From contig CAXXWX010000026.1 of assembly GCA_963675745.2 (NCBI GenBank), positions 512,001-576,000 on the forward strand: DNA of 64,000 nucleotides, in the 5' to 3' direction. This document shows positions 15,001-21,000 of this stretch, one piece after another. How positions within the stretch are numbered: the first letter of the stretch is position 1; each line of letters begins with the position of its first letter. The DNA comes from Phycisphaerae bacterium. Its GTDB lineage: Bacteria; Planctomycetota; Phycisphaerae; UBA1845; Fen-1342. A program made the position numbers.

Positions 15001-18000
15001 GGCTGCGGCGCGCGTGCCGGAGTCATAGTCATCGGCGGAGACGGTTCCGCAGAACGGCAGCGCCAGGTGTACGTGGGCATCGACGCCGCCGGGAATGACG
15101 TAGCGCCCCCGCGCATCGATGATCTGCGCGCCGTTGGTGCTGCCCGCGGCCAGGCGATTGCCGATGGCGGCAATTCGCTCGCCGCGGATTCCCAGGTCGG
15201 CGCGCGTAACCTCACCGGCCGTCACCAAACGTCCCCCTCGGATAATCGTGTCGAAGTTCATGGCGTTCCCTCGGAGTTGTTTCCACGTCGGTCTTACGAT
15301 GCTCATTCTCTGGCAGAGCATCACCAGCGGTCAAGCGTTTCGCCGTGGATACCAACAGCGCCGAGTCCAGACGGAACGCGGGAAAGGTCCATGGGGAGTC
15401 TCCCGCGCCTGGCTAAGGCGTGGCGTTTTGTGACGTGAAGACGTGGCCCGCATGTGGGGTGCCAGCAAACACTGGTTTTGCGCAAGAGCATATCCGCGCG
15501 GGCAATAGCTGGATGGGTGCGACCGCGGTTTGAGTTTACTCGTCACCCGCTGGAAACGCCCGCTCAACCGTCTCGAGATACGCCCAGCGTTCTTCGATCT
15601 GCGCCCGCAGATCGTCAGTATCGACGTCGATGGACGAATAGCGCCGCTGCCGGCTGATGTACTCCTCAACCGGAGTTCCGTTCGGCCGCACATTGATGCG
15701 CCAGCGCACGCCGTCAAACACTTCATAGACGGGGAACAAGCCACACCGAACGGCATAATCCACCAGGTCCACGCTCTGAGTCGGCTCACTCTTCCAGCCG
15801 GTCGGGCACGGCGAGAGCATCAGCAGAAAACGAAAGCCCCTCAGGCGTTTGGCCGTATTGAGCTTGCGCAGAAAGTCATCGCGGTGCGCGACTGACAACG
15901 TCGCGGCATAGGGCACACGGTGCGCCGCGATGATGGACATGATGTCTTTTTTGTTCTCGCGCTTGCCGCGCGGCGTGGTTGTCGTGCGAACATGCGCCGG
16001 CGTGGCGCCGCTGCGCTGCCCACCGGTGTTGCCGTAGATCTCGTTGTCGTAGCAGAAGTAGATCATGTTCTCGTTGCGCTCGGCGGCGGCCGAGATGGCG
16101 GCGAGCCCGATGTCATAGGTTCCGCCGTCACCGGCCCAGCACACGACGGGGCGTTTGTCGCCGTTAAGATCGCGCACCGCGGAGATCCCGGTGGCCATGG
16201 CCGACGAGCTGGCAAAGGTGGCCGCCATGGTCGGCACGGCATACGCGCTCGTGGGAAAAGCGCCCGCCGCCACGATTCCGCAGCAGGCCGGGATGACCAG
16301 GGTCGGCGTTTGTTTTCCCAGCGCCTCACCGAGCCACTGTAACCCCAGCGACATGCCGCAGCCGGCACAATTCGTATTCCCGGCGCGCAGCAGGCACTCC
16401 TGGCCGTCTGGTCGGACCTGGGTTTTGATTTCGGTGCTCATACGGCCACCTCCTTCCAGATCGGGTTCTCAACATGTTTGCGCGCCACCAGATCGTCAAC
16501 GATTTCGTCCAGCATCGACGGCACCACGTCACCGCCACCGAGCCCGACGATATAGTCCTGCACCAGCACATCGGCGGCACCGTGCAGCGTCGCGGCCACC
16601 TCTTTCCAGAAGATGCCGCCCGACCCCGCCGAATGATTGCGGTCGAGCACGCCGATCTTCTTGGCCGGACCGATCGCGGCCATCAGCTCATCGCGCATGA
16701 ACGGCCGGAACATCCGGGCTTCAACCATGCCGATTTTCTCGCCGCGCTCGCGCCGCGCGTTGACCACGTTGCGCAGCGTGCGCGACATGGAGTTGCAGGC
16801 GATCAACACGTGTTCGGCGTCCTCGGTGTGGTCAACGCGCATCGCCCCGGGCGGGCGCCGGCCAAAGACTTCCTCGAACTCGTCAACGGCCTCGCGCAGC
16901 ACCTCGGGCACACGCTCCATGGCCCGCTGTATTTCGCGGCGGTGGTGTTCGGTCTCGCGCGGAAAGGTCATGCCGCCCACGGTGGCGGGGTGCTCGTAGC
17001 GCAGCCGGTGTGGCACGACGCAACGAGGCAGGTAGCGGTCCACCAGATCCTGCTCGGGCAGGTCGGTCACCATCGACGTATGTGAAACGAGGAAACCATC
17101 CATCGCGATCAACGCCGGCAGCAGCACGCGCTCGTCTTCGGCCACGCGAAACGCCAGCAGCACGGTATCGACGACGTCCTGGTGCGATGCGCAATAAAAC
17201 TGGATCCAGGCCGCGTCGCGCAGCATGAGACTGTCACCCTGATCGACCCAGATGTTCCAGGGCGGCCCAAGCGTGCGGTTCACCGCGATCATGACAATCG
17301 GCAGGCGGTAATAGCCAGCCGCGAAGACATTCTCGATCATATAGGCCAGCCCGTTGGACGAGCTCGCCGTGAATGCCCGCGCGCCGTCGAGCGACGCCCC
17401 CATGCACACGCCCATGGCGCTGTGCTCGGATTCGACGTTGATGATGCGCCCCTTGGTGAAATCGAATGCGCTCAACGTCTCGACAATCTCTGTCTGGGGG
17501 GTAATCGGATAGGCTCCCGCGACGCAGCCCAGTCCATCGCGGTTGGCCTCACCCGCCACGGCCAGCGTATATCCGGCGGCGTAGTTCCCCGTTGCCAGTG
17601 CACGTGCCACGCGCGCTCTCCTTGTTTGCTATCCTCATGGATGGCACAGGCGTCTCGCCTGTGGGCTCACAGGCAAGGTGCCTGTGCCACCGTGAAAACC
17701 ATGTCCGCGGTCAACTCAAAGCTCGGCCATGAAGATCACGCCGCGCGGACATTGTGACGCACACACGCCGCAACCTTTGCAGTATTCGTAATCAAACTTG
17801 TAAGACGCCTGCCCGTCTCGCACGAGCACGCCCTCCGGGCAGTACGCCACGCAACGATCACACGAGTTGCACACCCCGCAACTGAAGCAGCGGGCGGCTT
17901 CGACGGCCGCCGGTCGATGGCCCGGGTCATCCACCAGCCCGAGGCGCACCTCGGTGAAGCTCCGCCGCCTGAGATCCGCGGGCATGACCACGCCGTCCTC

Positions 18001-21000
18001 CCGCGGCGCGTGCCCGAATATGTGCATCGAGATGACTTCGGGGCCGGCGATCGGCTCAGCGGGAGGCGGGAAGAGGTCCTCGCCCGTCAAAGTACGATGC
18101 ACGTGCAAAGCCGCTCGATGGCCGCTGCCGATGGCCGCCGTGACGGTCCCATCGTTGCTGGCGAAATCGCCGCCGGCAAACACTGGCCCGCCCGCCAGAC
18201 CGAGCATGACGCTGCCGTCTTCGTTGTGAATCTCCGCCCCTTCGGGCAGAATCGAGAGATCGTGTGACTGCCCCAGGGCCAGTATCACCCGATCACACTC
18301 CAGATCGAATTGGGCATCGGGGCCGGTGTCGGGCTCGGGTCGCGGACGCCCGGAATCGTCCGGCGTTCCCAGGCGCATCCGCTGACAGACCAGCAGTGTC
18401 TTCTCGCCTTCCCGATGAACGCGCAACGGCATGACCAGTTCGTGCAGTTGCACGCCCTCTTCGATCGCTTCGTCAATCTCCTCACGAATCGCCGGCATCT
18501 CGGCGCGCGTGCGCCGATAGATCACGCGCACGCTGGCGGCCCCGACGCGACGGGCGGATCGTGCCGCATCCATCGCCGTGTTGCCGCCACCCACCACCAG
18601 CACGTGCTCGCCGTGCAGGCTGCGTTGCCCGCGGCGCGCCTGATCGAGGAAGTCGATCCCCTGCTCGACGAACTCTGGAGACAACCCACCCAGGTTCAGT
18701 GCCCGCAACTCCTGCAATCCGGTCGCGACAAAAACGGCGGCGTATTCTTGTGAGATGCGCAGCAACGCCTCACGATCGATGCGGGCTCCCGTCCGCGTGC
18801 TGACGCCGTGGCGCAGGATGTAGCTGATCTCGCGATCCAGCACTTCACGAGGCAGGCGATAGGCGGGAATCCCCGTGCGCATCACACCGCCGAGCTCCTG
18901 GCCGGCCTCGAAGATCGTGACCGAGTACCCCAGCCGCGCGAGGTGATACGTCGCCGACAGACCGGCCGGGCCGCTGCCGATCACCGCGATCTTGATATCG
19001 CGGTCGGGCTTGGTGGGCAACGGCAGTTGGCCACGATCGGCGGCGTAGCGTTCCAACTCGCGGATATTCACGCCACTGTCATACTCGGCGCGGTTGCACG
19101 CCTCCATGCACGGCGCCGGGCAGACGCGCCCGCAGATGCCGGGAAACGGCGACGTCCGCAACAGCGTTTGCAGGGCATCGTCGACTTGATCCTTCGCCAG
19201 CAATTGCAGAAAACCCTGCACATCATTGCCCGCCGGACAGTTGGCATTGCACGGCGGCGTGAGCTGGTGTCGATCCGGCTGCCGCGACGCCCACTCGCCG
19301 GTGTGCAAGCGCGGCATCTCGCCGACAAACTCATCGTCGAGCAGTCCGACAACCTGTTTTGAGGCCGCCGCGGGCTCGGCGATGATTCTCTCGCCGGGGA
19401 GTTGTGCGGAGCGCACCTGCTCAAAGGCGGCCTTGGCGGCCGACGTATTCCCGCCGCCAAACCGCATCTCGTCCAGCGTGGCGGTCACGGCGTTCAAATC
19501 CAGCCCGAACACCTTTGCGACAGCGCCGAGAATAGTCGTATTGACGATCGGCACAGTCTTGGTGCCCAGCCCGTTGGCCACGGCGATGCCGGTGGCATCG
19601 ATAGTGGCGACGTTACGGCCGGGGAACATCTCTGCAAACGTCTCGGGGGGATCGGGTGTGTTCAGAATGAGCCAGCCGTCCGCCTTCATCCCGGTCACAA
19701 CGCGCGGCGCGATCAGCGTGCGATCCAGCAGAATGACGTGGTTCGGTTCGCGGATCTGATTGCTGGTCGTGATTTCGTCGTCGCTGACGCGGACGAAAGC
19801 CTGCACGGGCGCCCCCGAGCGCTCGGCCGCGTACACGCCGAAGGCCTGCACGTATTTACCGCGAAGGAAGTATGCGGTGGCGACCAGCTTGGCGAGCGTA
19901 ACACCGCCCTGACCACCACGTCCAAAAATAGTGATTTCGGTCATGCCGCGACCTCGTTTGAGAGACCGGACGTCGATTGACGCGTAGCGCCGGGACACTC
20001 TCGACCCCGGCTACATCCACGAGACATGCTATGCGAATCTGCTCCAAAGCAAAACCCGTTCCGTGGCCGGCGGATCGCGCTGATTCGCGTAGTTGACTTA
20101 GCCTGAATGACTTAGGGGGCCACGGTCGGCCCAAATGCGGGGACCCGTCGCTGCGGGAAGTGCGGAATTCTCGTCGCGCCTTTGGGGAAACCCGCGCTAT
20201 GCGCTGCCAGGCGCGTCGCACGATACCGTGCCCGATCACTAATTGAACGCCACTCGAATCTTCCCCTTCTGCCAGTCCTTGACCAGCAATCGTACTTCCT
20301 CAATCGTCTCCTCGAGTCGGCGTGAGGTCAGCACCATCGACTCGTACAACCGGTCGTCGCGCAGCGCCTTGGCAACGCTGCCGTCGCCCTCCGACATCAG
20401 CGCCGCCGCTTGCTTGAGATAGCGGAGCACATCGCCCGCCTCGTTCAGGTCGTCGATCAGCACATGCGAGACGTCGGCGACCCGCTGGTCAACGTTGTCG
20501 AGCGAGGACTCCATCTTGGTCATCACGCCGCCGGCCTTCTCGGCCGCGGTTTTCACGTCGCCAGCCGCCTGGCGCAAGTCGGCCATCAATATCCGGCCAT
20601 CTTCCGACATGCTGTAGGCGTTCGCGATGGTCTCCTTCAGCCGGCTTTTCTGTTCCGGGTCTCCGAGGATTTCGTTGAAATGCGCCAGCAGCGCGTCAAG
20701 CCGCGCCGCCGCACTGGCCAGGTTTCCCGTGGCACCCTCGAGCGTGTCAACTTCGTGCGGATCGCGCGGCGCGAGCATTTTCTCCATGGCTTCCAGTACG
20801 GGGCGCATGGCCGCGGCGGCCTCACCAATCTGGCGTGCCGTGCGATCGAGATTCGACGATATTTCCTCGGGCAGGACAGCACTCATGGCGTCCTTGGTCA
20901 GCCCCACCATCACGCCCTTGTCGGGCGGCAGGTGCGTTGCCGAATGCCCGGGGATGATCCTGATCGGCGGGCGCCCGCCGGCGAGCAACCCGGCCTCGAA

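Follow-up and report, generated by a model that had tools for sequence, protein, structure and literature searches.

Direct coupling of 2-oxoacid oxidoreductases (OFORs) to pyridine nucleotide is known from the eukaryotic pyruvate:NADP+ oxidoreductase (PNO) of Euglena and Cryptosporidium, a NifJ-type PFOR fused to a cytochrome-P450-reductase-type FMN/FAD module, and from the phenylglyoxylate:NAD+ oxidoreductase PadEFGHI, an assembly of five separate subunits. The 2-oxoglutarate:NADP+ oxidoreductase of Azoarcus evansii (KGOR, KorABC), described by Ebenau-Jehle, Boll and Fuchs in 2003, is said to pair a two-subunit KorAB-type core with a flavoprotein of roughly 63 kDa as a subunit of its own, and reportedly acts on 2-oxoglutarate in benzoyl-CoA metabolism. 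A subunit of KGOR has been grouped with NsoC in the GltD/NfnB/DsrL family of flavoproteins (an excerpt of PMC10134865). PorABCD of Methanosarcina acetivorans (PDB 9bt4), the best solved match to the alpha, beta, and gamma parts of the enzyme described here, hands its electrons to free ferredoxin and has PorC and PorD as small subunits in their own right. The ferredoxin-using oxalate oxidoreductase of Moorella thermoacetica (PDB 5c4i), which is not known to use CoA, has a natural gamma-delta fusion in its 315-aa 'delta' chain.

The three-gene locus and its catalytic core

The window (the whole 64,000-nucleotide stretch of a Phycisphaerae bacterium contig that was analysed, to which all coordinates refer) holds a gene for a 742-aa fusion chain (17716-19944, minus strand; the ORF spans 17716-19998, and the 742-aa form starts at the ATG at 19944), followed on the same strand by genes for a 390-aa PorA-like OFOR alpha subunit (16438-17610) and a 301-aa PorB-like beta subunit (15536-16441). 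Gaps of 294 bp and 105 bp separate the fusion gene from an MlaD gene and from the alpha gene, respectively, and the alpha and beta genes overlap by 4 bp. The ORFs and Pfam domains are as the survey's finding had them: a three-gene OFOR, one chain of which runs from a gamma domain through an NfnB-like module to a ferredoxin domain.

Of 61 loci, 51 share the order fusion-alpha-beta, and the remaining 10 end no more than 1367 nt from the fusion gene; the trio is thus kept in 51/51 related loci with room for it, from Planctomycetota, Acidobacteriota, Gammaproteobacteria, and Myxococcota. Also as first described, the best 120 database proteins, 737-799 aa long, align with 100% of the query at 64-75% identity, combine PF01558, PF14691, and PF07992 on one chain, and bear generic names only. 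The gene is patchy: of 201 genomes sampled from the class 13 have it, as does 1 of the 7 others from its own family. The genome studied here also encodes an AceE-type PDH, a NifJ-type PFOR, and a KorA-like OFOR; both the patchiness and these other 2-oxoacid enzymes were counted against the reading we prefer.

All three core components have the features of PorABCD-type (pyruvate/2-ketoisovalerate) enzymes. Specifically, i) alpha contains POR_N (199 bits) and PFOR_II (75 bits), matches 9bt4_B with 242 bits, and has a YPITP substrate/TPP motif (Y34-P38) which, like R112, is conserved among 23 sequences; ii) beta contains TPP_enzyme_C, matches 9bt4_C with 165 bits, and has both the GDG...N motif for TPP/Mg2+ and four Cys for the proximal [4Fe-4S] cluster, with C25, C28, C54, C212, G104-D105-G106-G107, and N133 invariant in 22 sequences; and iii) the gamma (PorC-type) domain at fusion residues 1-190 (19375-19944, minus strand) contains Pfam POR (PF01558; residues 10-174, 101.5 bits), exceeds the NCBIfam cut-off for TIGR02175 PorC_KorC (146.1 bits, cut-off 81.1), and matches PorC (9bt4_E) over residues 1-179 with 108 bits. 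The AlphaFold2 (AF2) pLDDT of this domain is mostly 80-95.

Narrower NCBIfam equivalog models all score below their cut-offs, both for alpha (PorA_Arch, 351.7 vs 550 bits; VorA, 298.9 vs 646) and for beta (PRK11864, 312.2 vs 405; PorB, 269.4 vs 405), and matches to the Pad enzyme are likewise sub-threshold (PadE 96.9, PadG 231.7, and PadI 149.3 bits, against equivalog cut-offs of 300-700 bits). Since the POR, VOR, OOR, and Pad cut-offs are missed, these models cannot name the substrate, which is most likely pyruvate or a branched-chain 2-oxoacid.

The flavoprotein module and the C-terminal ferredoxin domain

A flexible linker of about 25 residues (191-214; 19303-19374, minus strand) joins the gamma domain to the flavoprotein module; it is weakly conserved among fused proteins, and the AF2 model has just one long stretch of low confidence, at residues 190-214 (pLDDT <50). 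The NfnB/GltD/DsrL-type module itself (residues 215-625; 18070-19302, minus strand) comprises an Fe-S domain (Fer4_20, 229-304, 66.9 bits) and Pyr_redox_2 (318-607, 92.0 bits), with an FAD site GSGPAG and an NADP(H) site GGGNTAMD...YRR, so that the FAD GxGxxG and GGGN motifs are both intact. Invariant among 38 fused proteins are C232, C236, C275, C279, C283, E298, G323, G325, G452-N455, and Y476-R477-R478, the last in 38/38 at identities down to 32%. This YRR motif, which holds the 2'-phosphate in TmNfnB, is also that of NADP(H)-specific DsrL (PMC7596348).

C236, C275, C279, and E298 align with the proximal-cluster ligands Cys51, Cys90, Cys96, and Glu117 of TmNfnB (ligand list in PMC7596348), whereas two of the four Cys of the TmNfnB distal cluster, Cys39 and Cys42, have no Cys counterpart in our alignments; the Fe-S path inside the module therefore differs from that of NfnB. 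The closest solved homologues are not NfnB (4ylf_B, 248 bits; Foldseek TMt 0.75) but the NfnABC/StnABC complexes (Bfu-type transhydrogenase; PDB 9bov, 8oh5, and 9n5u), which are 36% identical to the module (9bov_A, 287 bits; Foldseek E 3e-45, 593 columns) and share an 'RCxxCG' segment following it. There the module is inserted in a NuoG-like subunit, within a bifurcating complex for NADH and ferredoxin that involves no OFOR, and serves as the terminal NADP(H) site (PMC11829005).

The likeness to DsrL extends to the end of the chain: residues from about 213 to 742 are laid out as an Fe-S domain, an FAD domain with an embedded NAD(P) domain, a linker, and a 2x[4Fe-4S] ferredoxin domain (PMC7596348), whereas DsrL lacks the gamma domain and has DsrAB as its partner. 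NF009410 (PRK12771, 566 positions), a family of NAD(P)-binding Fe-S flavoproteins that includes DsrL and OFOR-linked forms, matches residues 213-740 over profile positions 31-563 (507.9 bits, under its cut-off of 516), with its order of N-terminal Fe-S domain, FAD site, NAD(P) site, and C-terminal ferredoxin domain kept. By sequence, the flavoprotein part appears to belong to the family of DsrL, NsoC, and the Azoarcus KGOR subunit. Gamma-fused and stand-alone forms interleave in the tree; stand-alone forms directly adjoin a NifJ-type PFOR of 1191-1194 aa at three loci (L088-L090), IorA-like fusions of the module (1108-1131 aa) exist, and 6 of the 19 loci that were scanned had a POR_N neighbor.

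The C-terminal part of the chain (linker and 2x[4Fe-4S] ferredoxin domain, residues 626-742; 17719-18069, minus strand; Fer4 at 715-737, Fer4_9 at 692-737) had been described as an OFOR delta-type domain, a claim that holds in part. Both delta CxxCxxCxxxCP motifs are present and invariant; ten Cys are invariant in this region of the 38 fused proteins, including the eight canonical ferredoxin Cys and two extra ones, C686 and C689, ahead of them. No separate delta gene lies within the trio, and of all solved chains it is PorD (9bt4_G) whose single aligned stretch scores highest (C692-C732, 39.9 bits). The 5c4i chain matches both ends of the fusion (residues 20-212 to 34-236, and 691-737 to 260-305) but has no flavoprotein insert; about 470 flavoprotein residues separate the gamma and delta-like parts here, where PorC and PorD are separate proteins in PorABCD. 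Docking of the C-terminal domain on alpha and beta scored 0.45 vs 0.00 for the best control, lending weak support. TIGR02179 PorD_KorD, however, reaches 51.1 bits vs a cut-off of 60.05 and covers profile positions 26-75 only; the domain is probably the ferredoxin domain with which DsrL-like (NF009410) proteins normally end, and need not be a captured OFOR delta subunit. The alpha, beta, and delta scores under the equivalog cut-offs, as well as the missing Cys39/Cys42 counterparts, were counted against our preferred reading.

A predicted path of electrons to NADP+

We conclude that the trio probably encodes a 2-oxoacid:NADP+ oxidoreductase that needs no ferredoxin and falls in the pyruvate/2-oxoisovalerate class, catalyzing 2-oxoacid + CoA + NADP+ -> acyl-CoA + CO2 + NADPH. 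The PorA/PorB-like alpha-beta core would decarboxylate the substrate on thiamine pyrophosphate; single electrons would leave through the beta-subunit [4Fe-4S] cluster, pass to the two clusters of the C-terminal ferredoxin domain standing in for the missing delta subunit, and then through the Fe-S domain of the NfnB/DsrL-like module to FAD, where they would collect before hydride transfer to NADP+, while the gamma domain, on its flexible linker, would hold the flavoprotein to the core. We infer this path, the oxidative direction, the NADP+ acceptor, and independence of free ferredoxin, the last two, which the survey's finding had already predicted, from the intact cofactor motifs, the invariant YRR, the conserved trio, the recurrent linkage of module and OFOR, and the non-bifurcating use of the module in its closest solved homologues. 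Passing electrons at about -500 mV to NADP+ at -320 mV wastes energy, which speaks against this reading, although KGOR and eukaryotic PNO make the same transfer.

Might free ferredoxin or flavodoxin still be reduced at the C-terminal domain, with the flavoprotein as an internal ferredoxin:NADP+ reductase that balances ferredoxin against NADPH? Ordinary ferredoxin-dependent OFORs are present in the genome, and DsrL-type proteins reach their partners with a flexible C-terminal ferredoxin domain (PMC7596348), but AF2 places the region around that domain confidently against the body of the flavoprotein (pLDDT about 90 for residues 600-700), which does not look like a mobile arm, and at the 8 fused-gene loci sampled, the flanking ORFs scanned with Pfam included no gene for a delta subunit, ferredoxin, or NfnA; we regard a dual acceptor as rather unlikely. 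The same scan bears on bifurcation or confurcation, in which the FAD would split or merge electron pairs as in NfnAB, together with NADH or an unseen NfnA-like subunit. The FAD of NfnB is the bifurcating flavin of NfnAB, TmNfnB is a clear homologue of the module, and two other Fer4_20 proteins are encoded elsewhere in the genome; GltD, DPD, and DsrL, on the other hand, are not known to bifurcate at the corresponding flavin. In the closer solved homologues NfnABC and StnABC (287 and 261 bits) the module is a terminal site that does not bifurcate (PMC11829005), and we think bifurcation very unlikely. Identity with NfnAB (NfnSL) itself was rejected on the lack of NfnA in those flanking ORFs, no genome-wide search for it having been made, and on the lack of the Cys39/Cys42 counterparts. 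OFORs are reversible in principle, so that an NADPH-driven 2-oxoacid synthase carboxylating acyl-CoA reductively can be imagined, but NADPH (-320 mV) is too weak a reductant for a couple of about -500 mV unless aided by bifurcation or an input of energy, and no carbon-fixation context was found among 66 flanking ORFs scanned from 10 loci, making the reverse direction hardly credible.

The genes beyond beta invite another explanation, and the operon had been said to continue into them functionally. A dihydropyrimidinase gene (13864-15324, minus strand; Amidohydro_1; TIGR02033, 446 bits, cut-off 393) and, 35 bp on, a fused PreT-PreA dihydropyrimidine dehydrogenase (DPD) gene (11243-13828, minus strand; Fer4_20, Pyr_redox_2, DHO_dh, and Fer4_21; PreA, 534.9 bits, cut-off 335) adjoin the trio on the same strand, and ferredoxin-dependent DPDs exist (an excerpt of PMC7332683), so that the OFOR could be a dedicated source of electrons or NADPH for reductive pyrimidine degradation. 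Yet a 211-bp gap separates beta from dihydropyrimidinase, neither gene follows the trio at any of the 39 related loci whose sequence runs on for 1500 nt or more beyond it, and DPD brings a complete PreT NAD(P)H module of its own, in which VSL at the YRR position suggests NADH (motif rule in PMC7596348). These neighbors lie outside the conserved unit and are probably unrelated to it; the operon claim is not upheld, and a dedicated pyrimidine role is highly improbable.

We wish to stress that NADP+ linkage, predicted here, is not in itself new. The enzyme had been presented as a prokaryotic counterpart of PNO, but precedent exists in the A. evansii KGOR subunit (an excerpt of PMC10134865). Identity with PNO was rejected: no flavodoxin, FAD_binding_1, or NAD_binding_1 domain was found by Pfam in the three proteins. 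Like KGOR, which is NADP+-dependent, the trio pairs an OFOR with a GltD/NfnB/DsrL-family flavoprotein; unlike KGOR, it has a PorA/PorB-type core, a flavoprotein fused to gamma, and no aromatic-degradation context, and on the first two of these differences identity with KorABC was likewise rejected. KGOR, described in 2003, is already an NADP+-linked OFOR that contains a member of this flavoprotein family, and the present enzyme is a variation on that kind rather than a kind of its own.

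Genes, domains, and cofactor sites of the trio

Searches with Pfam and NCBIfam place five minus-strand ORFs, and their domains, where the survey's finding had put them: a 742-residue fusion read from an ATG (17716-19944), OFOR alpha (16438-17610; 390 aa, POR_N and PFOR_II), OFOR beta (15536-16441; 301 aa, TPP_enzyme_C), a dihydropyrimidinase (13864-15324), and a fused PreT-PreA dihydropyrimidine dehydrogenase, or DPD (11243-13828). A GTG 18 codons 5′ of the fusion ATG is a less likely start because homologs and the catalogued protein begin at the ATG. The fusion is composed of a gamma domain (POR, residues 10-174), Fer4_20 (229-304), Pyr_redox_2 (318-607), and a dicluster ferredoxin domain (691-740); the sole long disordered stretch in its AlphaFold2 model (mean pLDDT 87.3, pTM 0.71) is residues 190-214, between gamma domain and flavoprotein, and the nearest folds by Foldseek are NfnABC/StnABC, NfnB, GltD, and DPD. 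The database picture was likewise reproduced, the best 120 proteins being 737-799 aa long, 64-75% identical over their full length, and named only generically.

The cofactor sites appear intact throughout. In beta, C25, C28, C54, C212, GDGG (104-107), and N133 are invariant among 22 sequences and correspond to the proximal [4Fe-4S] cluster and TPP/Mg site of PorB-type subunits; alpha retains YPITP and R112. Just past this conserved Arg, alpha W118 (17257-17259; 'PPWNIW' compared with 'APINIW' in M. acetivorans PorA) is nearly invariant in the family and might narrow the substrate pocket. When the fusion is aligned to T. maritima NfnB, using the ligand list in a DsrL study (PMC7596348), C236, C275, C279, and E298 match the proximal-cluster ligands Cys51, Cys90, Cys96, and Glu117, and the distal-cluster ligands Cys47 and Cys100 align with C232 and C283. 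None of these six residues varies among 38 fused proteins, the most divergent at 32% identity, and the same is true of the FAD GxGxxG, of GGGN, and of Y476-R477-R478; in the DsrL study, YRR is reported to hold the 2′-phosphate in NfnB, and a DsrL with YRR to use NADP(H) only (PMC7596348). The C-terminal domain carries two canonical CxxCxxCxxxCP motifs (C692-C702 and C722-C732), and its best-scoring single aligned stretch among solved chains is M. acetivorans PorD.

The fusion family has no Cys where NfnB has the distal-cluster ligands Cys39 and Cys42. Two further invariant Cys, C686 and C689 ('RCxSCG'), lie directly before the ferredoxin core, bringing the invariant Cys of the C-terminal region to ten, two above the need of two clusters (the stretches concerned are 17719-17889, residues 686-742, and 19225-19302, residues 215-240). 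The 'RCxSCG' motif aligns with Cys of solved NfnABC and StnABC chains. Both features were checked in 144 representatives, with 2 near-matches included in the count of the six-Cys C-terminal motif: the motif is present in 116 of the 128 without Cys upstream of C232, and in 2 of the 16 with at least one, a correlation rather than a test since the representatives are related. We propose that the distal cluster is held by C686 and C689 together with C232 and C283.

Conservation of the trio and its neighborhood

The trio is real and well conserved. A genome-collection scan yielded 63 loci, of which 61 have the gamma-fused gene. Going by record titles, they represent Phycisphaerae and other Planctomycetota, Thermoanaerobaculia/Acidobacteria, Lysobacterales, Woeseiaceae and other Gammaproteobacteria, an Anaeromyxobacter, and an unclassified proteobacterium. 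Alpha and beta come after the fused gene in 51 of the 61, and the remaining 10 loci end at most 1367 nt from it. Two loci, L062 and L063, were considered as stand-alone relatives and rejected as GltD parts of archaeal-type glutamate synthase clusters. Distribution is patchy within the window's class, where 13 of 201 sampled genomes have the gene (genome G000 counted), and in the same family, where it occurs in 1 of 7 genomes besides the window's own. Beyond the trio, nothing conserved emerged when 66 flanking ORFs of 10 loci were scanned with Pfam, and a scan of 13700-20400 for promoters and terminators gave counts not above those of shuffled sequence.

An MlaD/Mce-like gene (20239-21871, minus strand, in the window) lies upstream of the fusion in 14 Planctomycetota loci (L001, L004, L006, L007, L010, L012, L015, L016, L020, L031, L032, L052, L054, and L055), 9 of which also have a Pfam-less gene of ~230 aa; the synteny is a matter of lineage, and no functional connection is evident. 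Near the trio, an ADP-forming acyl-CoA synthetase gene is confined to L040 and L045, apart from a weak match in L041. In L040 (3260-8376 and 13122-15242), from a Lysobacterales MAG, it lies 3′ of the trio, and isopropylmalate-dehydrogenase-like, HMGL-like, CoA-transferase III, and LeuC/LeuD-like genes lie 5′, a set that is not conserved at other loci but may point to 2-oxoacid chain elongation or degradation. The window also encodes, at 9380-11071 on the plus strand, a 563-aa protein with an Exo_endo_phos nuclease/phosphatase domain and two Flg_new_2 (InlB B-repeat-like) domains.

The survey had the operon running on into the dihydropyrimidinase and DPD, and this link was not borne out. Downstream of beta, neither gene occurs in any of the 39 loci that extend 1500 nt or more past it (33 extend 3000 nt or more), and a tblastn search of the 63 related loci with both window proteins returned no adjacent match, the sole hit (28% identity, partial) being ~7 kb off on the opposite strand in L043. 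The gap between beta and the dihydropyrimidinase is 211 bp; alpha and beta overlap by 4 bp. DPD itself is a single 861-aa chain in the order Fer4_20 - Pyr_redox_2 - DHO_dh - Fer4_21, as in mammalian DPD. Its own PreT module is complete and retains the four distal-cluster Cys ('RCLLCHDAPCNTGC'), with VSL in place of the fusion's YRR, which suggests, by the motif rule in the DsrL study (PMC7596348), that its cofactor is NADH rather than NADPH. Given the 0 of 39 loci, the 211-bp gap, and a PreT module of its own with VSL, the adjacency of trio and pyrimidine genes is taken as local and probably incidental.

Repeated joining of the flavoprotein module to OFORs

Residues 213-740 of the fusion cover nearly all of NCBIfam model NF009410 (566 positions; 507.9 bits versus a cut-off of 516), so the NfnB-like module and its C-terminal ferredoxin domain also occur as a separate protein. 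A HMMER search of 1.84 billion representatives with residues 205-742 retrieved 21,592 relatives at a threshold of E≤1e-3, of which 3,950 also pass E≤1e-30. The best 150 of the 21,592, classified with the window's own domains, include 101 stand-alone module-plus-ferredoxin proteins, 16 gamma-fused proteins and one truncated, 13 with a second ferredoxin domain, two joined to an IorA-like POR_N plus TPP_enzyme_C protein by Pfam (P0030, 1131 aa, and P0100, 1108 aa), and one joined to a TPP domain only (P0079, 991 aa; Pfam). P0030 belongs to a cluster of 19 proteins of several sources. Stand-alone and fused relatives alike bear only generic source names.

A true NF009410 member is present in 98 of 301 genomes of the class to which the L040 genome belongs. 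Neighbors were scanned with Pfam at 19 of the 24 NF009410 loci returned: i) in 6 of the 19, a POR_N protein adjoins the NF009410 gene, and in all three loci that were extended it is an ORF of 1191-1194 aa, a NifJ-type PFOR by Pfam in two of those three; ii) in 7, the gene lies between DsrK-like and DsrO-like genes, and we infer that these members are DsrL; and iii) in 6, the neighbors are others. The pairs at L088:5721-10938, L089:5514-10789, and L090:2568-8035, each with a stand-alone gene of 545-606 aa beside a NifJ-type PFOR of 1191-1194 aa on the same strand, look like candidate two-gene bacterial pyruvate:NADP+ oxidoreductases. In a FastTree phylogeny of 144 module sequences, gamma-fused and stand-alone forms interleave; the gamma-fused label changes 15 times, at least 11 of them forced by well-supported branches, both numbers being upper estimates because some short 'stand-alone' rows are contig-end fragments. 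Taken together, fusions, adjacency, and tree indicate that the linkage of the module to OFORs arose repeatedly and took several forms.

Full-text searches found no description of the gamma-NfnB-ferredoxin fusion in the literature. The principle of an NADP+-linked OFOR is already known from the Azoarcus evansii 2-oxoglutarate:NADP+ oxidoreductase (KGOR), with the Pad enzyme and PNO as analogous cases. The KGOR subunit is assigned in PMC10134865 to the family of the fusion's module, together with NsoC and adjoining the DsrL, NfnB, and GltD clades. DsrL shares the domain plan of the fusion's flavoprotein part, and the DsrL study left out look-alikes directly linked to pyruvate/ketoisovalerate:ferredoxin oxidoreductase genes (PMC7596348); such genes had therefore been noticed before but not examined.

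Electron path, substrate, and significance

The trio's most likely function is 2-oxoacid + CoA + NADP+ -> acyl-CoA + CO2 + NADPH. Electrons would leave TPP by way of the beta cluster, pass both clusters of the C-terminal ferredoxin domain, enter the Fe-S domain of the module, and reach NADP+ through FAD. Direction toward NADP+ reduction would be expected because the potential of the 2-oxoacid couple is about -500 mV and that of NADP+ is -320 mV. The survey's proposal of direct electron transfer to a pyridine nucleotide, here read as NADP+, is well supported by inference from the intact conserved motifs, YRR included, and from the conserved trio.

The C-terminal ferredoxin domain is the sole candidate bridge between beta cluster and flavoprotein, and no separate delta gene was found within the conserved trio or in the flanks sampled. 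A split delta subunit, with the conserved 'TGxW' segment (residues 215-218) as its N-terminal arm, found no support: a 46-residue fragment matched only NF009410 (17.4 bits), with no PorD match in NCBIfam or PDB. A predicted complex of alpha, beta, and residues 640-742 scored 0.45 (runs 0.42, 0.45, and 0.56; best control 0.00), with partner pLDDT of at least 54 and runs agreeing in at least 87% of contacts. This result is classed as 'weak support'. The mark is attained by 116 of 157 solved complexes and by 2 of 215 mismatched pairs, but scores of 0.60 or less occur for only 18 of the 157 and for both mismatches; the docking may also echo memory of the similar solved complex PorABCD.

As for substrate, alpha, beta, and gamma best match POR/VOR-class NCBIfam models, all under the equivalog cut-offs. 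The window's genome (91% complete) also encodes an AceE-type PDH, a NifJ-type PFOR, a KorA-like OFOR, and a SucA-like E1. Together with the failure to detect a BCKDH-type E1 in it, this set hints weakly at branched-chain 2-oxoacids.

We wish to stress that our widest reading is offered tentatively, and as a whole seems to us rather unlikely: that the DsrL-like module plus ferredoxin domain is a general plug-in adaptor which, in bacteria living at oxic-anoxic interfaces, has repeatedly made NADPH generators independent of ferredoxin out of at least four OFOR builds (PorAB-type, NifJ-type, IorA-like, and KorAB-type); that a distal cluster bridged by C232/C283 and C686/C689 locks the module's ends together; and that the trio provides a branched-chain 2-oxoacid oxidation route in a Phycisphaerae genome without detectable BCKDH-type E1. 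Because the Azoarcus KGOR work had already established the principle, specialists would find the trio interesting more than surprising. Current annotation of the fused genes goes no further than 'OFOR gamma subunit' or 'FAD-dependent oxidoreductase', and metabolic engineering could make good use of a compact 2-oxoacid:NADP+ system that needs three genes and no ferredoxin. If the predicted NADP+ linkage of the trio holds, thousands of uncultured sediment, soil, and groundwater bacteria would oxidize 2-oxoacids with an enzyme of oxygen-sensitive type, making NADPH directly and bypassing the ferredoxin pool, and both redox balance and 'anaerobic' marker genes would be read differently in metagenome-based metabolic models.
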